Below are positions 48,180 to 61,294 of a stretch of 64,000 nucleotides of DNA, one piece after another. The position numbers and the translations under genes were made by a program. A model generated the notes under the pieces. It saw nothing but the letters and a program-made list of their open reading frames with translations, was not told where the DNA came from and did no database searches. How positions within the stretch are numbered: the stretch's first letter is position 1; every line of letters starts with the position of its first letter. Source of the stretch: Planctomycetota bacterium (GTDB lineage: Bacteria > Planctomycetota > B15-G4 > JADJEK01); the NCBI GenBank assembly GCA_044225365.1, contig JBGAIQ010000008.1, positions 97,575 to 161,574 of the forward strand, written 5' to 3'.

Positions 48180-48779
48180 TCACTTCGCGGCGAGCTTCTT
48201 TGCCCAGTAGTGATCGGCCTTCTTCTTCAGCTTCTCCTTGCCTTCGTCCTGCCACTTCGTGCGGGTATGGGCGAGGAAGCCGTCGTAGAACACGAGCAGC
48301 TTCCCGTCCTGGATGAGGAACGACTCGGGATCGATCTCCACCTTGTCGTCCTTCGCCATCGCGTAGGCGCACCAGCCGCCGTAGGCGGGCTCGAACTTCT
48401 GCGGGTCGTCGACGAACTTCTTCTTGTTGTCGTCGGACACGAAGCGATACAGCACGCCGCGATAGCGGTACGTGATGTCCTTCTTGCCTTCCTTCGGCTT
48501 GCCTCCGCCCTCGTCGCGGTAGGAGACGGGGTCGTAACCCGAGAGCGCGAGGCCGTCCTTGCCGAGATTGAACTGCGAGACGTCGCGCTTCACGTTCGGG
48601 TCCTTGCCGTCGTCGACCGGCTTCTTCGCCTCCTCGGGCGCCGGAGTCGCGGGCGCGTCCGTCTTCTTGCCGTCCTGACCGAGCGCGGTCGCCGTTCCCG
48701 CCGCGTGAAGCGCGAGGATGCAGAGAACACCGTGAAGAAGGACTCGTCTCGGGCATCGGGCTCGGATCATCGAGGTCAT
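48180..48779 (-). CDS. Secreted YHS-domain (seleno)protein family
   Basis: [34 protein letters not shown]; signal peptide. Confidence 0.88.
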
Positions 48780-48981
48780 CGCAGCGCTCCAATCGGAAAG
48801 GGACCCTCGATGGATGCGCGGGCCGTTCTTCCGTTTCTGGGCTTTCGGGAATTGCGAGGCGGATTCCAACGGGGGAATCGCGATCGCCGTACCTGCGCCG
48901 TTGCGTAGATTGCCCGCGCCACCCACCTTCCTTTGGAGTCCCGCCGTGACGTCGATCGCTCGCGCGCCCCGTATCCTCGTC

Positions 48982-50235
48982 ATGAACCTGCTGCTGTCCG
49001 CAGGCACTGCGCTCGGCGGCGAGAGCGTGCTCGTGAAAGCGGGACACCTCATCGATGTGAAGGCGGGCAAAGTCCTCGCGGATCAGGCGATCCTGATCGA
49101 CGGCGATCGCGTGAAGGAGGTCGGTCCCATCACGAGCGTTTCACCGCACGCTCCGGCCGACGCGCGCATCGTCGATCTGACGAAGTCCACGGTCCTGCCC
49201 GGGCTCATCGACTGCCACACCCACCTGCTCGGCGATCCGGAGTCCATCGGCCTCAAGGACTACACGATTTCGATCCCGCGCGCGGCGCTGACGGGTGCGA
49301 AGAACGCGAAGAAGACGCTCGAAGCCGGGTTCACGACCGTGCGCAACGTCGGCGCCTCGGGCTTCGCGGACATCGCCTTGCGCGACGCGATCGACGACGG
49401 CGACGTGCCAGGCCCCCGGATCGACGCCTCCGGTCCCGCGATCGGAACGACCGGCGGCCACGCCGACGGCAATGAACTCGCGCCCGAGCTTCACTTCAAG
49501 GCAGACGGCGTCGCCGACGGCGTGCCCGCCCTCATCGCGAAGACTCGCGAGATCGCGAAGTACGGCGCGAACTGCATCAAGATCGTCGCCACGGGCGGCG
49601 TGCTCTCGAAGGGCGACGATCCACAGGCCACCCAGTTCAGCGACGAAGAGATCCGCGCGGTCGTTGCCGAAGCGCATCGCCTCGGCCGCAAGGTCGCGGC
49701 GCACGCGCATGGCGCGCCGGGCATCCAGCAAGCGGTCAAGGCCGGCGTCGATTCGATCGAGCACGGCTCCTACATCGACGACGAAGCCATCGCGCTGATG
49801 AAGGAACACGGCACGTATCTCGTCCCCACCCTCTACCTGGGGGATTGGCTCCTCGAGAATGCCGAGCGCCTCGGCCTGCCGCAGTACATCCGCGACAAAG
49901 CGAAGGCCGTTCTGCCGATCGCGCGGAAGAACGTCGCTCACGCCTTCGCGTCCGGCGTGAAGGTCGCTTTCGGCACCGACTCCGCCGTGTATCCGCACGG
50001 GCTCAACGCCCGCGAGTTCGCCGTGATGGTGAAGCTCGGGATGACGCCGGTGCAGGCGATCCAGGCCGCGACCGTGAATGCGGCCGACTTGCTCGGGTGG
50101 TCGGATCGCGTCGGCACGCTCGAGCCCGGCCACTTCGCGGATCTCATCGCGGTCGACGGCGATCCGACCGCCGACGTCACGCTGCTCGAGCACGTCCGAT
50201 TCGTGATGAAGGGCGGCGCCATCGTCAAGTCGTGA
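48982..50235 (+). CDS. Amidohydrolase (Xaa-Pro dipeptidase-like)
   Basis: [45 protein letters not shown]. Confidence 0.92.
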
Positions 50236-50256: not shown

Positions 50257-51078
50257 TCAGTGTCGTTTGGCGACGATCTCGAGAACGAGCGGCGTGAGCA
50301 TCGCGCCCGCCGCATCCGCCTCGCAGCGCGCGAACTCCTCGCGCACCGCGCGCGCCAAGTCGTTCTCGATGATGCCGAGCTCGAGCAGGCGGGCCGTATT
50401 CGCATGCACGAACGTCCGCGGCCATTCCCACATCGGGTCGCCCGGACGGATGCAGAAGATCCGCGGGACCGCGGATTCGATTCGGAAGCCCTCGGAGGTC
50501 AGGAGCGCAGGGAGCGCGCGCGCGATGTCCGGCTCGCCGCCGTTGTCGCGCCAGCTCTGCATCACGCGGCGCACGAACTCCTCGAGAGCAGGGCTCTTCT
50601 CGAGCGTCCTCCACGTGGCGTAATCGGCGTACTCGTGGAACACGGCGACGCCGCCGCGCTTCACCACGCGGGCGAGCTCGCGGACGAGACGCTGCGGCGA
50701 CGCGACGAAGCACGCGACCCATCGGCACCACGCGAGGTCGAATCCCGAATCCGGGATCGCATCCGTCATGAGATCGAGGGAATGGAATTGGACGTTCCTC
50801 GCACCGGCGGATTCGCAGCGGACCCGTGCAGCGTTCAGGAATCGTTCGGACCGCTCGACGGCGACGACCTCACCCGCCGGCCCGACACGCTGCGAGAGAT
50901 CGAGCGTCGCGTAGCCCGGCCCCGCGCCGACGTCGAGCGCTTTCGAACCGGGCACGAGTCCCGCCGCGTCCCAGCACGAGACCACGGTCTGCCGCCACAC
51001 CGAATGCTGCACGCCGAGCCGTGCGAGCTCTTCGTCGTGGGTGCCGAGCACGTAGTCGCGGTCGTTCGATGGCGTCAT
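50257..51078 (-). CDS. Class I SAM-dependent methyltransferase
   Basis: YVLGTHDEELARL, LDVGAGPG. Confidence 0.9.
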   Translation of the reverse strand: MTPSNDRDYVLGTHDEELARLGVQHSVWRQTVVSCWDAAGLVPGSKALDVGAGPGYATLDLSQRVGPAGEVVAVERSERFLNAARVRCESAGARNVQFHSLDLMTDAIPDSGFDLAWCRWVACFVASPQRLVRELARVVKRGGVAVFHEYADYATWRTLEKSPALEEFVRRVMQSWRDNGGEPDIARALPALLTSEGFRIESAVPRIFCIRPGDPMWEWPRTFVHANTARLLELGIIENDLARAVREEFARCEADAAGAMLTPLVLEIVAKRH

Positions 51079-51923
51079 CCTCTCGGCTCCTTCGATTGCG
51101 CGGCGGTCTCCCAGGCGACGAGCGCCCGTTTACGAGCGGCGCCCCATCGGTACTCCCCGAGGACTCCGGTCTCGCGGATCACCCGGTGGCAAGGGATCAG
51201 GACGGCGATCGCATTCGCGCCGACGGCCGCGCCGACGGCTCGGGACGCCTTGGGTTCGCCGATCGCCCGAGCGATGCGGCCGTAGCTCGTGAGCGAACCT
51301 TCCGGGATCGACAGTAGAGCTCGCCACACTCGCACTTGGAACGCCGTGCCGCGCACGTAGGCGCGCAGGCCCGTTCGCGCCGTCGTCCGCGTGAAGACGC
51401 GATCGGCGATCTCCTGCGCGACGCCGTCGTCCCAGGCGAACCGCGCTCTCGACCAGTCCGCGAGTTGGGCCTCACCGGACCGCCGCGTGGTCGACTCGAC
51501 GAACGAGAAGTGACAGATCCCGCGCGGCGTACTGCCGATCAGCGCGTCGCCGAACGGAGTCGACGCGAAGCCCGCCTGCATCGTGAGGCCCTCGCCGCGC
51601 GATTTCAGCTCTCCTGGAGTCGCCGCCTCGAGACCCACGCAGAGATCGTGGAGACGGCTCGGCCCCGAGAGCCCCGAATCGAGCGCCGCGTCGAGCACGC
51701 TCTCGCCGCCCTGCAACAGGCGGCGGCAATGTTCGAGCGTGAGGCATTGGAGGAAGTCCTTCGGTGTCACGCCCGCGAAGGCGCGGAACTGACGATGGAC
51801 CTCGAATCGATCCATTCCGACGTGCGCCGCGATCGCCTCGAGATCGGGCTGCTCGGCACGGTTCTCGTCGAGGAATCGCAGGATGCTCGCGATGCGTTCG
51901 TACTGGGTCGCTCTGGTGTTCAT
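51075..51923 (-). CDS. Ada-like AraC HTH / methylated-DNA-protein-cysteine methyltransferase
   Basis: AGVTPKDF, LSGPSRLHD, GTAFQ.VW, RAVG, IPCHRV; no N-terminal Zn domain. Confidence 0.92.
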   Translation of the reverse strand: MNTRATQYERIASILRFLDENRAEQPDLEAIAAHVGMDRFEVHRQFRAFAGVTPKDFLQCLTLEHCRRLLQGGESVLDAALDSGLSGPSRLHDLCVGLEAATPGELKSRGEGLTMQAGFASTPFGDALIGSTPRGICHFSFVESTTRRSGEAQLADWSRARFAWDDGVAQEIADRVFTRTTARTGLRAYVRGTAFQVRVWRALLSIPEGSLTSYGRIARAIGEPKASRAVGAAVGANAIAVLIPCHRVIRETGVLGEYRWGAARKRALVAWETAAQSKEPRG

Positions 51924-51996
51924 GCGCGGATCGTGCCATCGTAGCGCGCGCGGGCCCACCCGTTTCTTGCGTCGCGGATCGACTCGATCGCCGAGT

Positions 51997-53757
51997 TCAG
52001 TTCCGCGCGTGCTCGCGCTGCTCGCGGCGATAACGCAGGAAGCGCGAGACGAGCGCGAACGGGCTCGTCAGCGGGGCGCCGAGCGCGGCGTTGTGCGCGC
52101 CGATCGCGAACGCGATGCGCCACTGTTCGAAGAGCACTCGATACGCGTCCACGAGGCGCATCCGGGGGTCGTAGATGTGAGTCGCCTCCGAAGTGACGCC
52201 GTTCAGCTCGATGATCTTGATCCCCTCGCCGCGACGGAAGTGCTCGGCGCTCGGCGCGCGCACGTCGTATCGCCCGAAGTAGAACCCGTCGAAGGTCCGA
52301 CTCGCGCGATCGATCACGGTCACGAGGGCCTCGGTGTGGATCGCTTCGCCGTCGAGGAAGATCGCGCCCCGGCAATGCGTGCCGAGTTCGACGAGTTGGA
52401 TCCTCTCGCCGCGTGCGGGCACATGCGAGAGCCTTTGTTCATTGCGCTCGAAGTACGCTTTCGCCGCGCAGACCGCCCGTTCGTCGGCGAGGATCAGGTT
52501 CTCGAGCGTGCGATCTCCGTCCCCCACGACGACGGGCATCCTCTTCTCGGTGATCGAGATGATGCGACCCTGTTCCTCCGTCGGATGTCGAACGTAGAAG
52601 ATACCGAACTCCACGCCCGGCACGTATTCCTGCACCACGTGGTCGAGGGACATCTCGTGCTCGAGGAACGCGACGAGGCTCGGATCGTCCCGCACGATGC
52701 GGACTCCCGAGCCGCGCTGACCCACGTCGGGCTTCAAAACGAGCGGCAGAGAGAGGGCGTTCGTGGCGCAGAACTCGCGCACCTTCGCGATGCGCACCGC
52801 GGGCGGATCGCTCGCGAGGACAGATGCGCTCTTCGCCAGTAGATCGCCGGCGCCGCGCAGGTTCTCGAGGATCTTCAGCTTGCTCTCGCCGATGAACCCG
52901 CCGTTCTCGATCGCGGGATTGACGGCGGTGACGACGGCGAAGCCGCCCTCCCTTCGATGCTTCCACGCCAGCCGCGCGAGATGGAAGACGACGGGCGGAT
53001 AGAAGGCCCACGCAGGCCAGAACTCGAAGTGTCGCAGTCGCAGGAGCCGACCGCGCCAAACCCTTCGCCCTCGCCACGTGAAGAGCGAAGCGATCGAGAG
53101 CACGAGACGAACGACGGCGAAGATCCCGAGCACGATCCCGACGAGCACGAGGGCGCCGTAGTCGTGGAAGCGCGCGAACAGAGTGAGGGAGCGTTCCCCG
53201 AGCGCCCCCGAAAGCAGAACGAGGCTTGGCGTCCAGAGTAGACCCGCAAGCGCGAACCAGGCGGCGAAGCGCAGGAACGGCATCGCGAACGCGCCAGAGG
53301 CGAGATAGGTCGGCAGCCGCAGCCCGGGCACGAAGCGCGAGAAGAAGATGGCCTTGCCGCCGTGATCTCGAAGCAGCGTCCGGCCACGCTCGATCGCCGC
53401 GGGCGTCACGATGGTGAGTCGCGCGCCGGTCGCGAGCAGCGCCGTACCGAACATCCTTCCGATTCCGTAGAGCAGGACGTCGCCGGCGAAGATCCCGAGG
53501 AAGCAACCGACGATCGCGACGGTGGCGGGCATGCGCCCGCTCGCGACGAGCAGACCCGCGCTGATGCAGGTGAGATCCTCGGAGACGAGCGTCGCGACGG
53601 CGAGGGAGAACGCGAGCATCCACGGTCCCAGCGATTCGAACGTGCGAAGTTCGAACGGAACGCCGAGACCCAGTCGTTCCGCGGCCTGTGCCGTAGCCGG
53701 CCCGAGCACGAGCGCGGCGAATCCGGCGACGAGGACGCTCGCGACGCGCCGGTTCAT
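51997..53757 (-). CDS. DedA/VTT membrane domain fused to ATP-grasp ligase domain
   Basis: SEDLT, GD..LY.IG, RFVPGLR (DedA); EFWP, NP..GG..GESK, KPDVGQRG, QEYV, GRYDVR, IELNG..SE.THIYDP (ATP-grasp). Confidence 0.88.
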   Translation of the reverse strand: MNRRVASVLVAGFAALVLGPATAQAAERLGLGVPFELRTFESLGPWMLAFSLAVATLVSEDLTCISAGLLVASGRMPATVAIVGCFLGIFAGDVLLYGIGRMFGTALLATGARLTIVTPAAIERGRTLLRDHGGKAIFFSRFVPGLRLPTYLASGAFAMPFLRFAAWFALAGLLWTPSLVLLSGALGERSLTLFARFHDYGALVLVGIVLGIFAVVRLVLSIASLFTWRGRRVWRGRLLRLRHFEFWPAWAFYPPVVFHLARLAWKHRREGGFAVVTAVNPAIENGGFIGESKLKILENLRGAGDLLAKSASVLASDPPAVRIAKVREFCATNALSLPLVLKPDVGQRGSGVRIVRDDPSLVAFLEHEMSLDHVVQEYVPGVEFGIFYVRHPTEEQGRIISITEKRMPVVVGDGDRTLENLILADERAVCAAKAYFERNEQRLSHVPARGERIQLVELGTHCRGAIFLDGEAIHTEALVTVIDRASRTFDGFYFGRYDVRAPSAEHFRRGEGIKIIELNGVTSEATHIYDPRMRLVDAYRVLFEQWRIAFAIGAHNAALGAPLTSPFALVSRFLRYRREQREHARN

Positions 53758-54500
53758 GACGTCCTGCCTTCCACGACGGGTGCGAGCGACAACTCGACGA
53801 TGGAGTCCGAACTACTCTCGCAGGGCGCCGCCCCGTGCCAGGTGAGGCGCGCGTACGAGTCGTCGACGCGGATCCGCGTGAAGCTGCGCGTCTTCGCATC
53901 CTCGCGATGCATGCAGACCGAGTAAGCGCTCTTGCCTGGGACATGGCTGGCGTGCGCCGCGACGAGGCTGTCGATCGCGAGCGGACGGTGTAGCGCATCG
54001 AACACCGCGCGCCGCTTCTCCCCGACGGCGCGCGCTTCGAACGAAGACGACAGGATCGGCGGCTTCACGCTCGCGGGCGACCGCGTCACGAGTGAGGTCC
54101 GATCCCACTCTACGACCTGCGGGCCGGAAGAACCGCGCTTCGCTTCGAAGACGGCGAGAACGAAGGAGCGATGCTTGTCGGGGCCAATCGCCTCGAGACG
54201 AGACATTGCGCGACGGGCATCGCGTTCACCGAGCAAGTCGATCACGATCTCGCCGCGGCTCCTGAACTCCCCGCCCTCGCGATCCTTCTCGCGATAACCG
54301 TTCAGCAGCGCGACGACGAGGCCGTACTCGTTGACTCCGATCCAACTGCCTCCGCCTTCCGGATCGCGCGGCGCGATGAACGCGACGCCGCGCGTCGTAT
54401 CGCGATGCGGTGCGATCTCCGCTGCGCGAGTGTGCTTCTCGTCGCGATTGAAGAGGACCTCCAGCGTCGCGCCCTCGGTCGTCCAGCTCAGCGTGCACAC
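53754..54500 (-). CDS. NRDE/TANGO2 family Ntn-fold protein
   Basis: GTG start gives N-terminal (M)CTL; FNRDE, GGSWIGVN, LLNG, SRG. Confidence 0.9.
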   Translation of the reverse strand: MCTLSWTTEGATLEVLFNRDEKHTRAAEIAPHRDTTRGVAFIAPRDPEGGGSWIGVNEYGLVVALLNGYREKDREGGEFRSRGEIVIDLLGERDARRAMSRLEAIGPDKHRSFVLAVFEAKRGSSGPQVVEWDRTSLVTRSPASVKPPILSSSFEARAVGEKRRAVFDALHRPLAIDSLVAAHASHVPGKSAYSVCMHREDAKTRSFTRIRVDDSYARLTWHGAAPCESSSDSIVELSLAPVVEGRTS

Positions 54501-55018
54501 GGTGAATCGCTCTTCAGGAAACGCAACGTGGAGACCGCGACGCCGAAATCGGGGGATGGCCGCACTCCGCGCCGCTTCAGGACGATGGCGACGAGCGCGT
54601 AGTGATGGACGCAGTGGCTCGCGAGGAACATCAGCTCCCGCTCGAGGGTCGAATCGGCGATCGGCTGCGGCGCTCCGGCAGGAGCATCGTGGCTCACCCG
54701 CAGCGGTCGGCCCGCGAACTTCGCCTCGATCGCGCGCACGCGGCGCGCGAGCTCCTGCAGACGCTTCCTGCCGACAGCTCGCTCGCGTTCGAGTCGCTCG
54801 TCGCGACGCCGCGCGTCGAAGTCCACGCGCCCGGAGTCGAGACCTCGAAGAAGGCAATCGACCGCGTCACCGACGTGCCGCAGGTGCGCTCCCACCGACG
54901 AGATCCCGAGCTCGAGATCGCCGGTTCGAAAGCCCTCGTCGGTCAGCTCGTCGATCAGCGGCAGAACCTGCTCGAGGGATGCGGCGAGCGCCTCCCGGGT
55001 CACTTCGAAGGGACTCAT
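54488..55018 (-). CDS. DinB-family protein
   Basis: SVGAHLRH, DFDARRRD, RELMFLASHCVHH, FGVA. Confidence 0.85.
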   Translation of the reverse strand: MSPFEVTREALAASLEQVLPLIDELTDEGFRTGDLELGISSVGAHLRHVGDAVDCLLRGLDSGRVDFDARRRDERLERERAVGRKRLQELARRVRAIEAKFAGRPLRVSHDAPAGAPQPIADSTLERELMFLASHCVHHYALVAIVLKRRGVRPSPDFGVAVSTLRFLKSDSPCAR

Positions 55019-55046
55019 CTTGCTCGTTCCTCGATCGAACGCAGGA

Positions 55047-55841
55047 TCACTGCTTCGTTGGATGGAGGTTCGAGACCGCCTCGAATGCCGCACTCGCGAG
55101 CTCCTTGCGGTCCGAACCCGACACGGGGGTCGTGCCGAATCGGATGCGCGCGGTGAAGCCGGGTAACGCAGCTAATTTCACAATGTGAGGAAGGAGCGAC
55201 ATATCGCCCCACCAGCAGACAGCAGTTCGCGCCGGCTCGCACCCTTGCGGCGTCACGTACTCGATGCCGGCGCAATGGACGGGCAATCCGAGCGAGAGCG
55301 GCACCTCGAGCGTCGATGCCTTGAACGGCAGGACCGTATCGCCCGACGAACTCGTCGCTTCTGGGAACACGATGAGTCCTCGCCCCTTGTTCAACTCGCG
55401 GCGGAGCAATTCCTGAACGCGGACGAGATCCCGCTTGCTCTTGCGGTCGATGAACAATGTGCCGACGCCGCGTGCGAGCGTTCCGATGAACGGCCATTTC
55501 GCGATCTCGGACTTGCCGAGAAAGACGCCGCGGGTGCAGGTGAGGAACGCGACGACATCGATGTACGACAGGTGGTTCGACACGAGGAAGAAGGGCGGCT
55601 TCGGCGGTGTCCCTTCGACGGTGACGCGCATTCCTAGGCACGACGCGCAGACGTTCGCCCACGTCTTCAGGATTGCGTCGTGCGCGCATGCCCGGACGCG
55701 AGGGAACGGCCGCAGCAACCATTGCGAAACGAGATACGAGGTGAAGAGCGGGATCGTCGTCACGATCGTCGCCGTCAGCTTGAACCCTGAACGCAGCCGG
55801 CCCAGCGCCCCCATCGAATCCATTGCTACGGGGTCCCGCAT
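55047..55841 (-). CDS. Lysophospholipid acyltransferase (PlsC/OlsA-like)
   Basis: SNHLSYID (HxxxxD), KSEIAKWP, FIDR, FPEAT, WWGD. Confidence 0.9.
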   Translation of the reverse strand: MRDPVAMDSMGALGRLRSGFKLTATIVTTIPLFTSYLVSQWLLRPFPRVRACAHDAILKTWANVCASCLGMRVTVEGTPPKPPFFLVSNHLSYIDVVAFLTCTRGVFLGKSEIAKWPFIGTLARGVGTLFIDRKSKRDLVRVQELLRRELNKGRGLIVFPEATSSSGDTVLPFKASTLEVPLSLGLPVHCAGIEYVTPQGCEPARTAVCWWGDMSLLPHIVKLAALPGFTARIRFGTTPVSGSDRKELASAAFEAVSNLHPTKQ

Positions 55842-55909
55842 CTTGGATTCCTTTGGAGCGTCGATGGGAAGCGTGGGTTCCACGCGTCCTAGTCTTGCGA
55901 TCTCCACCG

Positions 55910-56710
55910 TCAGTTCAATCGCCGGTACGAATCGGGATCGGCATAGAGGAACAGCGTGGTCCCCCGCCGGACGGCGCGACCCTGTATCTCGAGGGGCTCC
56001 GCGATGCGATCGAGGATCTTCTCGTTGACGGCCTCTCCTCGCGCTCCGACGAGCAGGAACTGCAGCGAGTCGACGTCGGTCGCCTCCCCCTCCTTGCCCG
56101 TCGTTTGGAGCGAATCGACGACGAAGAGCGGCGGGATCCCTCCCGCGATGCAGCGCGTCGCGCAGGCCCGATGCGGTTTCCATTCCCCCGGCTTCATCAC
56201 GCCGAGCCAGCACTTCGAGTCGACGATCTCGCCGCGAAGGGTAATGGCGCCCAGTTCGACGTCGAGCTCGCGCGGGACGATCGAACCGCTCGCAGATTCG
56301 TCCTTCGCGATCGACTCGATCTCGAGCATCGTCGTGCCGGCGCGGTAGACGAGCGTGCCCTCGATCCGCACCCGCTTGCCGTCGAAGGGCGCGACGCGGG
56401 ACGCTGCGCCGCGTTTACCGCTCTCGACGAGGAGATAACGCGAGGCCGCTCCTGCACCGTTGTCGCGCGGCACGAGCAGCGTGGGTACGGGCACGGCTTC
56501 GACGAAGCCGACGAATTCGCGCGTCGTTCCGTATTCGAACGTGCCGCTCGAGAACCCGCGCTGGGCGAGCACGAGCGCGAGCGAAACACCGATCGCCAGG
56601 ACGAAGAGCGCGCCGACGGAGCATCGCACGTGGGCGCGAAGCGGAGGCGCCATCGCCGGTTGATACCCGATGTAGAACGCGTCGTCGTCGGGTGCTCGCT
56701 CGGATCTCAT
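55910..56710 (-). CDS. Membrane-anchored protein with C-x12-H-x2-C-x3-C motif, function unknown
   Basis: FYIGY, one TM, FEYG, DSKCWLGVMKPGEWKPHRACATRCIAGGIPP; ATGA overlap with the upstream gene. Confidence 0.8.
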   Translation of the reverse strand: MRSERAPDDDAFYIGYQPAMAPPLRAHVRCSVGALFVLAIGVSLALVLAQRGFSSGTFEYGTTREFVGFVEAVPVPTLLVPRDNGAGAASRYLLVESGKRGAASRVAPFDGKRVRIEGTLVYRAGTTMLEIESIAKDESASGSIVPRELDVELGAITLRGEIVDSKCWLGVMKPGEWKPHRACATRCIAGGIPPLFVVDSLQTTGKEGEATDVDSLQFLLVGARGEAVNEKILDRIAEPLEIQGRAVRRGTTLFLYADPDSYRRLN

Positions 56711-57750
56711 CGTGCCTCCGACTCTGTCGCGGGCGCCACGGGGGTTCCCGGATCATTCGGGATCGGATGGACGAAGATTCCTGCTGCGGCGATCCGCACG
56801 CGGTACGTCGCCACCTTCTCGGTGAACGGCGGCGGGGAGCATCCCGTCTCCGCGAGATACTGGTAACCGTGCCACGGGCACGTCACGCAGCCGTTCACGA
56901 TGCGACCTTCGCCGAGCGGCCCGCCTTGGTGACGGCAGACGTTCGAGATCGCCGAGAATCCGCGTTCGTGGCGGTAGATCGCGACCCTTTCGGCGCCGAT
57001 GCGCACGACGCGGGCGCGTCCTTCACGGATGTCGTCGACGCCGCAGGCGCGCACGTACCCGTCCCGATCGAGAGCGAGACGCTCGCGATCCGTCCGCCAC
57101 TCCTTCCTCGCGGCGAGGAGATGAGCGACGATCACGCTGGTCGCGCCGAGCAGGAGCGCGCCGGAGAGGATCGGGCTGCGCTCGGCCTGCAGGGCGCCGA
57201 GCCCCACGTGGAGAACGAGCAGCGCGTACGCGACGTACACCGCCATATGCATCGCCTTCCACGTCAGCGGACCGAGGTTCTTCAGCCAGAAGTCGTGACT
57301 CGTCGCCGCCATCACGAAGAGCACGAGCAGTGCGATCGCGCCGAGGATCTGGAACGGGAAGTGATGCAGGCTGTCCCAGCGGTTCTCCGAGGCGAGCAGC
57401 GAGACGAGCGGTGAGACGTTGCCGAGGGCGTGGAACTGGATCAGCGAGAAGACGCCATGCGCGAATCCGAGCCCGAACGTCGTGACTCCCAGGTGCCGGC
57501 GGTTGTAGAGGAAGGGCAGGAATCGCCGATCGAGTCGCGACAGCGGGCCGATGAGCAATACGACGTGGAGCAGTGCGAAGGCACCCGTTCCGAGCGCCCG
57601 GATGAGCAGCGTCTCGATCGTTGCATCGGGGAAGAACGCGAGTCCGACGGAGACGAAGATCGCGAGCCAGACGACGACGGCGAGCGCGAGCGTCTTGTCG
57701 TACGCCTTCTTCTGCGGGTTCCAGCCGACGGCCTGGTAGTGCAGGGTCAT
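56707..57750 (-). CDS. Ferric-reductase-like (MsrQ-type) heme membrane domain fused to Rieske 2Fe-2S
   Basis: NRRHLG, AHG, ATSHD, WKAMH, LHV; C-terminal CRHQGGPL...CPWHGY. Confidence 0.9.
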   Translation of the reverse strand: MTLHYQAVGWNPQKKAYDKTLALAVVVWLAIFVSVGLAFFPDATIETLLIRALGTGAFALLHVVLLIGPLSRLDRRFLPFLYNRRHLGVTTFGLGFAHGVFSLIQFHALGNVSPLVSLLASENRWDSLHHFPFQILGAIALLVLFVMAATSHDFWLKNLGPLTWKAMHMAVYVAYALLVLHVGLGALQAERSPILSGALLLGATSVIVAHLLAARKEWRTDRERLALDRDGYVRACGVDDIREGRARVVRIGAERVAIYRHERGFSAISNVCRHQGGPLGEGRIVNGCVTCPWHGYQYLAETGCSPPPFTEKVATYRVRIAAAGIFVHPIPNDPGTPVAPATESEAR

Positions 57751-58226
57751 CGCGACGACACTCCTGGCGCATCGGACGCGAGCGGAATCGAGGCGAGGAT
57801 CTTCTGATGCCCGAGGCTGTACAGGATCAACTCGGTCTCGCCCGACGCCGCGGAGGGTCGTGCAACCTCGAGATCTCGCCCCGGCACCACGCTGCCGAGG
57901 AGTCGCGCACTCGTACGCAGGCGAGGCCCCGCGCTCGCTTGCGAATCGGCGTAGACGAGGACGTCCGGCTCGCGAAGTTCGGGGGTCGCCCGGAGGAGCA
58001 CACGTTGATCGCGATGCTCGATCCGGATCCCCGGGAAGACCTCGTTCGCCGTCGAGGTGTCGACGCTCGTCCACGAGTTCGAGGAACTCGCGCCCGCCAT
58101 GATCGCGCGCGCGTCGACGCGCCCGCGGTCGGGCCGGGCATGCAGCGCGAGCGCGGCAAGCGGCAGCAGGACGACTCCGAGGACGGCGAACGCGCCGGCG
58201 TGAACGGTGCGCAGAGCGACGTTCAC
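57747..58226 (-). CDS. Hypothetical single-TM protein
   Basis: LRTVH..F.VL.VVL TM, PDVLVY, ARLLG, LILYSLGHQ; coupled on both sides by 4-bp overlaps. Confidence 0.7.
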   Translation of the reverse strand: MNVALRTVHAGAFAVLGVVLLPLAALALHARPDRGRVDARAIMAGASSSNSWTSVDTSTANEVFPGIRIEHRDQRVLLRATPELREPDVLVYADSQASAGPRLRTSARLLGSVVPGRDLEVARPSAASGETELILYSLGHQKILASIPLASDAPGVSSR

Positions 58227-58459
58227 GCGACCCCCTTTTCTCGCTGCGTTCGCGCGTTGCGGATCGACTTCGAGAGGAGGATCGGCCACAACGCGATGCT
58301 GCCCGGCACGAGGAGGATCCGGAAACCAATCGTCCCGCTCGCGGCGACTTCGTCGAGTCGGCGGATCCCGGCGACGAGGAACCAGGCGGTGAACACGAGT
58401 CCGATCCAGGCGTACCCCACGAGGAGCGCGACGACGAGGCTCGCAGTCGGAATGGACAT
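58223..58459 (-). CDS. Small 2-TM hypothetical protein
   Basis: YAWIGLVF, GIRRLDE.A, GFRILLVPG.IALWP; GGAG RBS upstream; first gene of the operon. Confidence 0.75.
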   Translation of the reverse strand: MSIPTASLVVALLVGYAWIGLVFTAWFLVAGIRRLDEVAASGTIGFRILLVPGSIALWPILLSKSIRNARTQREKGVA

Positions 58460-58554
58460 GGCGGACTCCAGGGCCGGATTCGGACTGCGGTTCGATGCAC
58501 TCGCGGCCGCGACGTTTCACCGATTCTCTTCCGGGCGAGTCGACTCCGCCGGCG

Positions 58555-59445
58555 TCAGGTCAACCGCGCGCGAACGACTTCGTGGAGCGTGCCGTTCGAA
58601 GCGAGCACGTTGCGCCCGAACAGGAAGTCCTTGCCTCCGCGATAGTCCGTCACGCGGCCCCCGGCCTCCTCGACGATGAGCGCGCCCGCGGCCACGTCCC
58701 ATGGCTCGAGCTGCTGTTCGAAGTAGAACGCGAAGCGACCGGCGGCGACGAATCCGAGATCGAGTGCGGCGGATCCGCAGCGTCGAACGTCGCGCACGTC
58801 GAGGATGAAGCGGTTCCAATGCTCGATGTTGTTCTCGAGGCTCGAGAGCTGGTTCCGGCGGTACGGGAAACCCGTCGCGAACACCGCGTCCGCGAGGTCG
58901 TCGCAGCTCGAGACACCGATCGGATGATCGTTCAACGTGGCGCCCTTGCCCTTCGTCGCGACCCACGTCTCGCGCAATGCGGGGGCGTGCACGATCCCGA
59001 GCATGGGCGATCCCGCGACGTAGAGCCCGATCGAGATCGCGAAGAACGGGTGTCCGTGCGCGAAGTTCGTCGTTCCGTCGATGGGATCGACGAGCCAGCA
59101 ATACGGCGTGGATTCCAGCATCGCGCGCAGCGGATCGAGGTCCTGCTTCCGACTCTCGCTGCGCTGCTCGAACGATTCGGTCGACCCCAGCGTCGCGCGG
59201 TCGCGAGCCGCCGAGACTTCCTCTTCAGCGAGCACGTGATGGCTCGGGAACGCGCCGCGCAGCGCGGACGTCACGATCTCCTCGACTTCGAGATCCGCGA
59301 CCGTGAGCAGGTCGCGCTTGCCCTTGAATCCAAGTTGTTGGTTCGAGATTCGCCCGAAGTGCGCGAGGGCTCGCTCGCCGCCATGGAAGGCCGCCTTCAG
59401 GCCGACGGCGCGAAATCGATCGATGGGCGACTCGTGTTGCGTCAT
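58555..59445 (-). CDS. suhB: Inositol monophosphatase family
   Basis: LLTVAD, AEE, DPIDGTTNF, RRCGSAALDL, WDVAAG. Confidence 0.92.
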   Translation of the reverse strand: MTQHESPIDRFRAVGLKAAFHGGERALAHFGRISNQQLGFKGKRDLLTVADLEVEEIVTSALRGAFPSHHVLAEEEVSAARDRATLGSTESFEQRSESRKQDLDPLRAMLESTPYCWLVDPIDGTTNFAHGHPFFAISIGLYVAGSPMLGIVHAPALRETWVATKGKGATLNDHPIGVSSCDDLADAVFATGFPYRRNQLSSLENNIEHWNRFILDVRDVRRCGSAALDLGFVAAGRFAFYFEQQLEPWDVAAGALIVEEAGGRVTDYRGGKDFLFGRNVLASNGTLHEVVRARLT

Positions 59446-59452
59446 CGCAGAC

Positions 59453-61294
59453 TCAGCCCTTCTTCGCCAGGTCGACGAGGAGCTTCGCGATCGAGTCTTC
59501 GAGCTTCTTCGCCGCCGTCGCGCCCTTGACGCCGTTCACGATCACCGAGAAGCAGATCACTTCTCCATCATCCGTGGCGGCGTAACCCGAGAGCGCCGAG
59601 ACTCCCGCGATGTACCCGGTCTTCGCCCGGACCCGCGCTTTGTAGGCGCCCTGCGTGAGGCGTTTCGAGAGCGTTCCGTCGACGCCCGCGATCGGCAGGG
59701 AGTCGACGAGGATCGGTCGCAGATCGCCATTGCCGTGCGTCCACAGCGCGCGCAGGAGCATCGCCACCTGACGCGGCGAGTACGCATTGCCCCGCGACAA
59801 TCCCGACCCGTCGACCGAGACCGCGCCGTTCGTGTCGATCCCGAGCTTCCCAAGCGTTTCGAGGACCGCGTGACTCGCGTTCTCGAAGGTGCCTCGTCCG
59901 CCCTTCGTGGCGCCGACGCGCTTGTAGACGTGCTCGGCGAGGACGTTCGACGACTCCTTGTCGACCTTGTGCAGGACCGCACGGAGCGGAGTCTTGACGC
60001 TCGCGATCTCGGCGAGCCCGGCCCTCGGAACGGCTGCGCTCGCCAGTTTCGCCTTTCCCGCTACGACGATGCCGGCGCGCGTCAATGCGGCGAGCAGCGC
60101 CGAAGGATGGGCCTCTCCCGGATTCGCGATCGGGACGAAGAGCGGGGCGGGATTGGCGCCGAAGGGCGTCTCACCGCTCACCTTGACCTTGCCGACCTGC
60201 ACCGGCGACGGGATCACGATGTTGTTCTTCGACTTTGCGGCCGCGGTCAGGAGTTCGGAGGTCGCGGCCAGCGCCGCGCAGTCGGGCAGCACGCTCGCGC
60301 TCGCCTTGGCTCCGACCTTTCCGGCCGGCTTCACGCGCACCACGAGGCAATTCTCGAAGAGCGAGAAGCCGGAAACGGGCGCGGCATAGTCGTGCGGCAA
60401 CTGCGTCTTGAGCCACTGCGGCGGGATGTACTGTCGATCGAAGATCGAGTCGTCGACGACGAGATCGCCGTTGACCCGCTGGATCCCCGCTGCCTTCAAT
60501 GCGGCCGCGAGACGTCCTCCGAGACTCGAGGCTTCGGTCGGCTCGTTCTGCAGCATGTCGGGGTCGCCATCGCCCACGACGACGAGATCGCCGTCCACCA
60601 CTCCGCCCGACACCTTCCCCTTCGCGAACGCTCGCGTCGTGAATTCGAAATCCGGGCCGAGCACGAGCAACGCCGTCGCGGTGGTGAACAACTTGTTGTT
60701 CGACGCGAGCACGAGCGGCGTCGCGGCGTCCTTCTCGTAGAGCACCGTTCCATCGGCGCTCACGATGCTGATGCCGATCTTCGCGTTCGACAGCCCCTTC
60801 TGAGCCAGGAAGCCCTGGATGCGCTGCGCGATCTGCGCGCGGGGAACGAGCGACGTCGCAGCGACGGGAGTGATCCTGGGTCCCGGGAACTTGGAATAGG
60901 CGCCCGCCTTCGCGGCCGGTTCCTTCCCGTTCGCAGTGGGATCGGGCTCCGCGGCCGCGGGCCCGTGAATGGCTCGTTCCTCACCGCTATCGGACGACTC
61001 GTCCGACTCGTCCTCGGTCTCGCTCGGGTTGTCCCCGGAATCGGATTCGATGCCCTCTTCGGCCTCCGTCTCCGGCCGTGGATTCGCTGCCGCGGGATCC
61101 GCCGCGACTTCGCCCTTCGAATTCGGATCCGCGATGGCACCCGGCGAACTCGGGGGCACGTCGACCTTGTGCGAACGGCGTTCGCCTTGTCCAGCCTGCC
61201 GGCCGACGAGAATCGTGTGTGCTGCGTGGAAGAGCAGCAGGGAGATCACGAGGACGAACGCTGCGAGATGGTAGAACCGGTTCTCCGACTTCAC
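59453..61294 (-). CDS. dacB: D-Ala-D-Ala carboxypeptidase/endopeptidase (S13, PBP4)
   Basis: ASNNK (SxxK), GDGDP, SSN, DGSGLSR, AKTG; N-terminal TM plus acidic linker. Confidence 0.92.
   Translation of the reverse strand: MKSENRFYHLAAFVLVISLLLFHAAHTILVGRQAGQGERRSHKVDVPPSSPGAIADPNSKGEVAADPAAANPRPETEAEEGIESDSGDNPSETEDESDESSDSGEERAIHGPAAAEPDPTANGKEPAAKAGAYSKFPGPRITPVAATSLVPRAQIAQRIQGFLAQKGLSNAKIGISIVSADGTVLYEKDAATPLVLASNNKLFTTATALLVLGPDFEFTTRAFAKGKVSGGVVDGDLVVVGDGDPDMLQNEPTEASSLGGRLAAALKAAGIQRVNGDLVVDDSIFDRQYIPPQWLKTQLPHDYAAPVSGFSLFENCLVVRVKPAGKVGAKASASVLPDCAALAATSELLTAAAKSKNNIVIPSPVQVGKVKVSGETPFGANPAPLFVPIANPGEAHPSALLAALTRAGIVVAGKAKLASAAVPRAGLAEIASVKTPLRAVLHKVDKESSNVLAEHVYKRVGATKGGRGTFENASHAVLETLGKLGIDTNGAVSVDGSGLSRGNAYSPRQVAMLLRALWTHGNGDLRPILVDSLPIAGVDGTLSKRLTQGAYKARVRAKTGYIAGVSALSGYAATDDGEVICFSVIVNGVKGATAAKKLEDSIAKLLVDLAKKG

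Follow-up and report, generated by a model that had tools for sequence, protein, structure and literature searches.

MprF joins an aminoacyl-phosphatidylglycerol synthase to a flippase within one protein, and AcvB-type proteins are periplasmic aminoacyl-phosphatidylglycerol hydrolases. Phosphorus-free aminolipids are widespread in membranes, and only five modifications of them are known according to a 2026 review of ornithine lipids (PMC12971839). For the ornithine lipids, which are synthesized through OlsBA or OlsF, the known tailoring enzymes are the hydroxylases OlsC, OlsD and OlsE and the N-methyltransferase OlsG, and biochemical work has shown that taurine can be joined to the carboxyl group of an ornithine lipid at the expense of ATP, by an enzyme for which no gene has been assigned; this transfer forms cerilipin in Gluconacetobacter cerinus, and the enzyme was assayed in the 1970s (PMC12971839). 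In Vibrio cholerae, the OlsF gene VCA0646 is described as closing a putative operon of four genes, VCA0649-VCA0646 (PMC12186959). Here we describe a cluster of eight genes, designated G1 to G8, in a 64,000-nucleotide stretch of DNA (hereafter, the window) from a Planctomycetota bacterium (assembly GCA_044225365.1, contig JBGAIQ010000008.1, positions 97,575 to 161,574), and compare it with these systems. We lean, with moderate confidence, towards a joint interpretation in which G1-G8 constitute one translationally coupled run made of two conserved modules, G1-G4 and G5-G8, and in which the cluster would have an accessory role in tailoring and moving an acyloxyacyl amino-acid lipid, free of phosphorus and of the ornithine-lipid type.

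The last gene, G8, encodes a DedA domain fused to an ATP-grasp domain. An N-terminal membrane helix (residues 4-26) is followed by the DedA/VTT region (approximately 47-228), which a linker containing the invariant motif E-W-P-W connects to the C-terminal ATP-grasp region (approximately 300-560). The DedA part matched the Pfam VTT_dom model at 42 bits (cut-off, 33.9), and residues E60, D61, R141, P144, G145 and R147, belonging to E-D and R-F-x-P-G-x-R motifs, were invariant in 48 sequences; in NCBIfam, this part came closest to UptA, a transporter of undecaprenyl phosphate, with a score of 48.5 bits (cut-off, 250). The ATP-grasp part scored 19.1 bits with Pfam ATP-grasp_3, below the cut-off of 23.2, while a relative (L020) scored 27.1 bits with RimK, for which the cut-off is 21. 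The nucleotide/Mg-binding residues K342, G346, R348, G349, Q376 and E517 were invariant and N519 nearly invariant in the same 48 sequences, and D344 was invariant in a 16-sequence alignment. When the profile of these 16 sequences was searched against PDB sequences, cyanophycin synthetases, GshAB, Ddl and RimK were retrieved with E-values from 2.8e-6 to 9e-5. An AlphaFold2 (AF2) model of G8, with a predicted local distance difference test (pLDDT) score of 89.7, gave 315 Foldseek matches in the PDB at E<=1e-3, the best being CphA1 (7wae_A, E 2.8e-9); the fold and profile matches also included Ddl, VanG and a chain deposited as 'glutathione synthase'. When the ATP-grasp part was searched in the Protein Atlas, all clusters retrieved were stand-alone ATP-grasp proteins, either unnamed or RimK/Ddl-like, and gave no further indication of the substrate. 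By profile and by predicted structure, the C-terminal part of G8 is thus assigned an ATP-grasp fold that lies nearest to the peptide-carboxylate ligases.

The assignment of the cluster to aminolipid metabolism draws on G5 and on the corresponding loci of related genomes. G5 is a PlsC-family O-acyltransferase (Pfam Acyltransferase, 71.1 bits), whose best NCBIfam match is the equivalog of the lyso-ornithine-lipid O-acyltransferase OlsA, at 132.6 bits against a cut-off of 300; its HX4D motif (H90..D95), together with F159, E161, T163 and S164, was kept in at least 90% of 52 sequences. Among 40 related genomes, 20 carried full-length homologues of G8, in two of the five families and not found in the other three, and these 20 loci were taken for tblastn. 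The usual order in the relatives of two families was G1, (G2), G3, G4, OlsB, G5, (G6), (G7) and a G8 of the composition abhydrolase-DedA-ATP-grasp. The extra gene between G4 and G5, directly before G5, encodes an Acetyltransf_5 (PF13444) protein, and the best NCBIfam matches of these proteins were OlsB ornithine N-acyltransferase equivalogs, at 135-154 bits and below the cut-off. The frame of G8 in the relatives spans about 900 residues as compared with 586 in the window, the difference being an extra N-terminal membrane helix and an Abhydrolase_1 domain, which should face outward as judged by the positive-inside rule. The cluster in the window is without OlsB, having only 68 bp between G4 and G5, and its G8 keeps the first helix without the hydrolase domain. 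Two further observations were made in these loci. A G8 homologue at L029:823-2397 (minus strand, genome G003) contains one in-frame TGA, which may reflect a sequencing error, a pseudogene or recoding, and was left out of the alignments; at L020:10704-14666 (minus strand), the gene immediately upstream of OlsB is a frame of 1320 residues in which MFS transporter, spermidine-synthase-like and TPR regions are combined.

The genome of the window gave a single PF13444 match, on contig C49 (L033:5933-7660, plus strand), unlinked to the cluster. This protein of 575 residues consists of an N-terminal Acyltransf_2 and a C-terminal Acetyltransf_5 domain, and its alignment with the OlsF model extends over the full length, with a score of 335 bits (cut-off, 620). 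The presence of this OlsF-like gene, together with the absence of OlsB from the cluster, suggested that the first steps of lipid synthesis are encoded elsewhere in the genome. An earlier note, made from the window sequence alone, had proposed a pathway that makes, redox-modifies and flips an amino-acid or peptide lipid or a thiol conjugate. The occurrence of OlsB next to the OlsA-like gene in relatives speaks for such a lipid, and the data speak neither for nor against the thiol conjugate. As the window does not encode the first, N-acylating step, "making" the lipid would depend on the OlsF-like gene elsewhere. The variant of the cluster without OlsB and without the hydrolase domain, paired with an unlinked OlsF-like gene, is reported here as new.

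The two remaining genes of this module, G6 and G7, encode candidate enzymes for amide- or ester-linked species. DinB proteins include thiol S-transferases. G6 belongs to DinB_2 (Pfam, 31 bits; cut-off, 24.8) and is predicted to be a four-helix-bundle metalloprotein, with the His triad H48, H135 and H138/H139 kept, at all four positions, in at least 90% of 57 sequences. G7 belongs to the TANGO2/NRDE family (PF05742; Pfam TANGO2, 50.8 bits; cut-off, 22.6), the human member of which reportedly binds acyl-CoA. Its direct match to human TANGO2 (8sv7) was weak (E 0.018), with the NRDE motif aligned, and C2 and N18-R19-D20-E21 were kept in at least 90% of 44 sequences. These residues correspond to those proposed as catalytic in the human protein, Cys2, Asn25, Arg26 and Asp27 (PMC13044924). 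The class of cysteine N-terminal nucleophile (Cys-Ntn) enzymes includes bile-salt hydrolase, acid ceramidase and NAAA (PMC13044924), and G7 is predicted to be a Cys-Ntn hydrolase or transacylase.

The upstream half of the cluster, G1-G4, is best read as a membrane redox unit composed of two small membrane proteins, a heme/Rieske fusion and an anchored protein with tandem OB-like barrels, as far as domain and motif content indicate. G1 is a small membrane protein with hydrophobic segments at residues 1-32 and 43-66 as judged by hydropathy; homologues of it lie upstream of G3 in related loci, 12 of them at E<1e-8 by tblastn, and the residues kept in at least 90% of 13 sequences include G31, R34, D36, F46, R47, P52, G53, W58 and P59. 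G2, whose start codon lies in the 4-bp overlap with the stop of G1, has a hydrophobic segment at residues 3-32, forming an N-terminal membrane helix, and then a domain of about 130 residues without a known family. It is poorly conserved, with tblastn matches in only two loci, and a G2-like open reading frame (ORF) of the same layout and with short motifs in common was present between G1 and G3 in about half of 21 loci examined. Neither G1 nor G2 matched a Pfam or NCBIfam family, even at lax thresholds. G3 combines a Ferric_reduct domain of the MsrQ/NOX/STEAP type (Pfam, 48.2 bits; residues approximately 20-215) with a C-terminal Rieske [2Fe-2S] domain of the ferredoxin type (57.3 bits; cut-off, 20.3; approximately 233-330), and its score with the NCBIfam MsrQ equivalog NF003831, 50.7 bits, did not reach the cut-off of 130. 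Of the eight conserved histidines of the membrane domain, H62 and H210 were nearly invariant across 25 sequences and the other six (H86, H98, H107, H152, H168 and H181) invariant, as were the Rieske ligands C272, H274, C291 and H294 (C-x-H...C-x-x-H); in a separate 27-sequence alignment, all these positions were kept at 0.93-1.00, the Rieske ligands at 1.00. No molybdopterin-oxidoreductase domain of an MsrP-type molybdoenzyme was found in the neighbours G1, G2 and G4, the rest of the genome not having been searched for MsrP.

G4 has a membrane helix (residues 22-49) followed by two OB-like beta-barrels in its AF2 model (pLDDT 84.4). Residues D164, K166, C167, M172, P174, H180, C183 and C187 were invariant in a 27-sequence alignment and lie in an insertion loop of the second barrel, forming a Cys3/His site. 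The Pfam DUF5818 model covered residues 105-135 only, at 20.6 bits and below its cut-off of 27. Structure searches retrieved generic OB folds only: the best Foldseek match was 1se8 (E 4.1e-4, TM score 0.21), and the best Z of the VIA wide search, 7.3, is within the range of common arrangements, the second domain being barely tested by that search. The family of G4 comprises 1311 representatives at E<=1e-30, and among the best 150 of these at least three are single polypeptides in which a ferric-reductase-type heme domain (FRD), a Rieske domain and a G4 part are joined (603, 624 and 631 residues). These polypeptides, P0034, P0052 and P0140, represent either natural G3-G4 fusions or gene calling across a frameshift.

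The interaction of G3 with G4 was examined by complex modelling. The model scored 0.80, whereas the best of three controls scored 0.00; the runs agreed in at least 90% of contacts, and the pLDDT of the partner was at least 82. Of 157 solved complexes, 116 reached this mark, as did 2 of 215 mismatched pairs; these counts hold only roughly here, since custom alignments were used. In the modelled interface, the helix of G4 packs against the first helices of G3 and the N-terminus of G4 contacts the Rieske domain, while the Cys/His loop of G4 (172-190) contacts G3 loops 105-124 and 184-198 on the face opposite to the Rieske domain. The location of the loop and the Rieske domain on opposite faces would fit a cytoplasmic Rieske domain and an outward-facing G4, and the model supports the prediction that G3 binds G4. 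The modelled interface and the fused G3-G4 forms are new here.

To our dataset of relatives, a scan of one genome per species contributed at least 578 relatives of G8, the best 80 of which were used for the counts of loci. These 80 come from metagenome-assembled genomes (MAGs) labelled Planctomycetota, Acidobacteriota, Gemmatimonadota, Verrucomicrobiota, Myxococcota, Gammaproteobacteria, Rhodothermia, Actinomycetota, KSB1, Kiritimatiellia and others. By tblastn with all components, many of these loci had the complete arrangement and others a rearranged one; G3 was present in 26 and G4 in 27 of the 80 loci, and the redox half adjoined the lipid half in 26, covering at least seven phyla by MAG label. 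In the 36 loci that were flanked by at least 7 kb on both sides, we counted OlsB in 28, G5 in 26, DinB in 28, NRDE in 22, the hydrolase domain in 28 and the redox pair in 14. An inverted block of redox genes, OlsB and OlsA lies downstream of G8 in loci L058, L079, L086 and L103, and a redox block lies downstream of G8 in L088 and L090; the two modules therefore stay together through inversion or transposition, as read from the gene order.

The co-occurrence of the two modules extends to genomes in which they are unlinked. In the window's genome and its 40 relatives, the G4 profile matched 19 of the 21 genomes with a full-length G8 and one of the 20 without (genome G001, a partial match), and in nine genomes among the relatives G4 and G8 were far apart or on different contigs. 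In an independent sample of 81 Gemmatimonadota genomes, the six with a full-length G4 were precisely the six with a full-length G8, and neither was found in the other 75, of which three had partial G4 matches that were weak; the two genes were on different contigs in four of the six carriers. This exact match of the two modules at the level of genomes in a second phylum is new here. OlsB was located 3-5 kb from G8 in all six carriers, and strong PF13444 matches were obtained in these six and in three more Gemmatimonadota genomes, which are without both modules. PF13444 was also present in 19 of the 20 G8-positive relatives of the window, and in nine of ten genomes with no OlsB adjoining G8, five of these having it in OlsF-sized frames like that of the window's genome. 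Taken together, these sequence data are consistent with a lipid module that is found where an aminolipid synthase exists and a redox module that tracks it.

Several other features were seen around these loci. A gene for a DoxX-like small membrane protein occurred near G8 in 17 of the 80 loci (e.g., L104:11687-12145, L072:11567-12001 and L070:5125-5571), starting at most 200 bp from the end of the G8 match in 11 of the 17; no homologue of it was found in the window. In eight of the 80 loci (L070:5628-6299, L038:12306-12893 and six others), a gene for an extracytoplasmic function (ECF)-type sigma factor is found no more than a few kb from G8, and this factor may regulate the cluster. Genome G001, from the same family as the window's genome, has a fragment resembling residues 479-559 of the G8 ATP-grasp domain in a frame of 126 residues (C65:45796-46035), a partial G4 at C122:124886-125452, and an OlsF-like gene; the fragments may represent a decaying copy of the system.

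On the basis of these data, the following route may be proposed. OlsF, encoded elsewhere in the genome, would make an N-(acyloxyacyl) amino acid with a free alpha-carboxylate, with or without the OlsA-like G5; in relatives, OlsB and OlsA would make the aminolipid instead. The cytoplasmic ATP-grasp domain of G8 would then phosphorylate the head-group carboxylate and ligate an amine, such as an amino acid or a taurine-like compound, a step proposed because its closest relatives, cyanophycin synthetase, glutathione synthetase, RimK and Ddl, do so with peptide or amino-acid carboxylates. The fused DedA domain would carry the lipid across the inner membrane, and the Cys-Ntn enzyme G7 and the DinB metalloprotein G6 would trim, transfer or recycle amide- or ester-linked species, an editing or recycling role which the outward alpha/beta-hydrolase domain on the relatives' G8 may share. 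In a complex of G1-G4, electrons would enter at the cytoplasmic Rieske domain of G3 and be passed across the membrane, by way of its two b hemes, to the Cys3/His site of G4; there, at the outer face, the lipid or its head group may undergo a redox step. A more specific version, which we hold to be rather unlikely, is that FRD-Rieske/G4 is a new kind of lipid-directed transmembrane electron conduit, which would use cytoplasmic electrons to reduce or oxidatively modify the head-group-extended aminolipid at the outer leaflet, in combination with a TANGO2-family amidase or transacylase acting on N-acyl-amino-acid lipids. If true, this would provide the first natural substrate class for the TANGO2 family.

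Other explanations of the same genes were weighed against the aminolipid-tailoring interpretation. The ATP-grasp domain of G8 might itself be an amide-forming lipid synthase that converts a fatty acid through an acyl phosphate into an N-acyl amino acid, as a separate route with no tailoring. ATP-grasp enzymes can make acyl-histidine via an acyl phosphate, as described in a 2024 review (PMC11631085), and the lack of OlsB from the window cluster would be explained in this way. However, 28 of the 36 well-flanked loci have OlsB within the cluster, PF13444 accompanies G8 in 19 of 20 relatives, in six of six Gemmatimonadota and in nine of ten genomes without an adjacent OlsB, the window's genome itself holds an OlsF-like gene, and the nearest sequence and fold relatives of G8 use peptide or amino-acid carboxylates and not fatty acids, so that we consider a synthase of this kind improbable. 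A role in peptidoglycan or glycan modification, in which DedA handles undecaprenyl phosphate-linked precursors and a Ddl-like ATP-grasp domain adds an amino acid, appears very improbable. It would account for UptA being the best NCBIfam match of the DedA part, for Ddl and VanG among the fold matches and for a PBP4-type gene two genes upstream of the cluster (Table 1), but the UptA score is far under its cut-off, the flanking genes including PBP4 had no matches in 99 related loci, and the conserved neighbours of G8 are OlsB and OlsA.

The redox half allows two more readings. A lipid-anchored, redox-active head group of the thiol type might be built by the ATP-grasp and DinB proteins and kept reduced on the outer face by FRD-Rieske/G4, which would agree with the tracking of G8 by the redox module, with GshAB and the 'glutathione synthase' chain among the best ATP-grasp matches, with the thiol S-transferases known among DinB proteins and with the DoxX-like genes after G8 in 17 of 80 loci. 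However, the cluster has no conserved enzyme that is specific for cysteine or handles sulfur, and the OlsB-like proteins best match ornithine N-acyltransferases; moreover, the function of a DinB protein is not readable from its fold and DoxX is not in the window. We judge such a head group to be improbable. That the two halves are independent and merely side by side, with the redox unit serving another periplasmic process and the adjacency being inherited synteny, would agree with the redox pair being non-adjacent to G8 in 22 of the 36 well-flanked loci, but seems the least probable of these explanations, and highly so, given that the adjacency is seen in at least seven phyla by MAG label and survives rearrangement, and that the presence of the two halves is matched between genomes when they are on different contigs (Gemmatimonadota, 6/6 and 75/75; relatives of the window, 19/21 versus 1/20).

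Several results weigh against the aminolipid-tailoring interpretation itself. The OlsA and OlsB assignments are below the NCBIfam equivalog cut-offs, and the window copy, which has neither OlsB nor the hydrolase domain, may not function in the way that the majority form does. NRDE was not found in 14 and DinB in 8 of the 36 well-flanked loci, and the redox pair was non-adjacent in 22, suggesting that not all of these are obligatory neighbours. No G4 match was obtained by profile in the G8-positive genomes G019 and G037, only weak partial G4 matches were obtained in the genome of locus L038, and the G8-carrying genome G129 had no PF13444 match. The co-occurrence counts overstate the evidence, because related genomes are not independent samples. 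Finally, no enzyme-like structural relative of G4 was found in the Foldseek and VIA searches, and its redox role for this reason rests on the invariant Cys/His loop and the predicted interface.

The positions of the eight genes and of other features of the window are given in Table 1. From G1 to G8, the first three junctions overlap by 4 bp each, the next two are gaps of 68 and 28 bp, and the last two overlap by 13 and 4 bp. The window has a GC content of 67%, and third-position GC fits the frame of all eight genes, a part of G6 being noisy in this respect. By tblastn, clear homologues in related loci were obtained for all of the genes but G2. The eight co-directional genes and their junctions had been described in the earlier note exactly as the ORF coordinates give them, and its domain calls (MsrQ-type, Rieske, PlsC/OlsA, DinB, NRDE, DedA and ATP-grasp) all hold by Pfam, NCBIfam, profile and fold searches; as far as sequence can tell, the eight genes and their domains are real. 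That note had also treated the redox half and the DinB/NRDE/DedA half as one operon, in agreement with their adjacency in 26 of 80 loci and their genome-wide co-occurrence even when unlinked. A scan of positions 51000-59800 with E. coli-type consensus sequences detected no promoter-like site, and no terminator-like site on the minus, coding strand, that would split the halves; this is a weak scan, as host promoters may differ.

Table 1. Features of the window, with positions counted from its first nucleotide.
Feature	Position	Strand	Length	Remark
G1	58459..58223	minus	78 aa	
G2	58226..57747	minus	159 aa	GTG start
G3	57750..56707	minus	347 aa	
G4	56710..55910	minus	266 aa	
G5	55841..55047	minus	264 aa	
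G6	55018..54488	minus	176 aa	
G7	54500..53754	minus	248 aa	GTG start
G8	53757..51997	minus	586 aa	
PBP4-type carboxypeptidase gene	59453-61294			Pfam; two genes upstream of cluster
Ada-like fusion	51075-51959	minus		start 37 bp past G8
SAM methyltransferase	50257-51078	minus		4-bp overlap with Ada-like gene
YHS-domain-like protein	48204-48587	minus		within ORF 48180-49070; 3.4 kb beyond G8

The flanking genes for PBP4, an inositol monophosphatase, the Ada-like protein and the methyltransferase were considered as members of the operon and rejected, as they had no tblastn matches in the 99 related loci. The Ada-like protein is a fusion of an AraC-type helix-turn-helix with an O6-methylguanine methyltransferase DNA-binding domain, and its gene and that of the S-adenosylmethionine (SAM) methyltransferase are both co-directional with the cluster. 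The YHS-like protein has a sub-threshold Pfam YHS score of 23.1 bits and is 39% identical to a YHS-like ORF near the cluster in six of the 80 related loci; its frame overlaps the start of a plus-strand amidohydrolase ORF.

Full-text literature searches, which did not extend to supplements, retrieved no description of the cluster, of the DedA::ATP-grasp fusion or of the FRD-Rieske fusion, and no paper linking these families, in line with the earlier note, whose author knew of no named system with this composition. The single 'Rieske' match, PMC5676040, was rejected, the word being the name of an author. The accessory genes are not described in the available text of PMC11631085, PMC12971839, PMC12186959 or the TANGO2 structure paper PMC13044924, and the terms ATP-grasp, DedA and flippase are absent from that of PMC12971839 in a term search. 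For the ATP-dependent amidation of a head-group carboxylate, which has been without an assigned gene since the 1970s, the cluster offers a candidate class, namely an ATP-grasp ligase fused to a lipid translocator. It also places a relative of the human disease protein TANGO2 (PMC13044924) in a bacterial gene neighbourhood that is conserved, and provides a previously undescribed heme/Rieske membrane complex, predicted here, that tracks the lipid module across phyla. All parts of this testable system are open to heterologous expression and lipid mass spectrometry.

Of the described systems, MsrPQ (E. coli YedYZ) consists of MsrQ, a membrane protein with heme b, which supplies electrons to the periplasmic MsrP. 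The redox unit resembles it in the ferric-reductase-type transmembrane heme domain of G3, the histidines of which are conserved, and in the predicted docking of an outward-facing partner to G3. It differs from MsrPQ in the Rieske domain fused at the C-terminus of G3, in a partner that is an OB-fold Cys3/His protein instead of a molybdoenzyme, and in two extra small membrane proteins. G7 is of the same Pfam family as human TANGO2 (crystal structure 8sv7), itself a proposed Cys-Ntn hydrolase, and keeps Cys2 and the NRDE motif, whereas their direct similarity is weak and the bacterial protein sits in an aminolipid cluster. The likeness to MprF and AcvB is one of logic: a cytoplasmic head-group enzyme would be fused to a lipid translocator, with an outward hydrolase in the same polypeptide in relatives. 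There is no sequence relationship to MprF, neither its flippase nor its aminoacyl-phosphatidylglycerol synthase domain being found in G8 by Pfam and NCBIfam, and ATP would be used instead of aminoacyl-tRNA, on another class of lipid.

A further parallel is with the OlsBA/OlsF system of ornithine-lipid synthesis: G5 is closest to OlsA, the relatives have a PF13444 gene upstream of it and the window's genome has an OlsF-like synthase. The extra genes are accessory, as is the case with the tailoring enzymes, and some genomes have the synthase without them. Unlike those systems, the cluster is without the known types of tailoring enzyme, its partners being DedA::ATP-grasp, DinB, TANGO2/NRDE and the heme/Rieske unit, and the scores under the OlsA and OlsB equivalog cut-offs suggest that the head-group amino acid may not be ornithine. 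The best profile and fold matches of G8 are the G domain of CphA, GshAB, RimK, LysX and Ddl, whose ATP/Mg-binding residues it keeps; G8 differs from these amino-acid ligases in its fusion to DedA, its E-W-P-W linker, its Pfam score under the cut-off and a substrate that is presumably a membrane lipid. Among the known aminolipid modifications, only the transfer of taurine in cerilipin formation both requires ATP and creates an amide on the free head-group carboxylate, which is the chemistry expected of an ATP-grasp enzyme; this transfer, without an assigned enzyme (PMC12971839), indicates that the kind of chemistry proposed here for G8 exists in nature.

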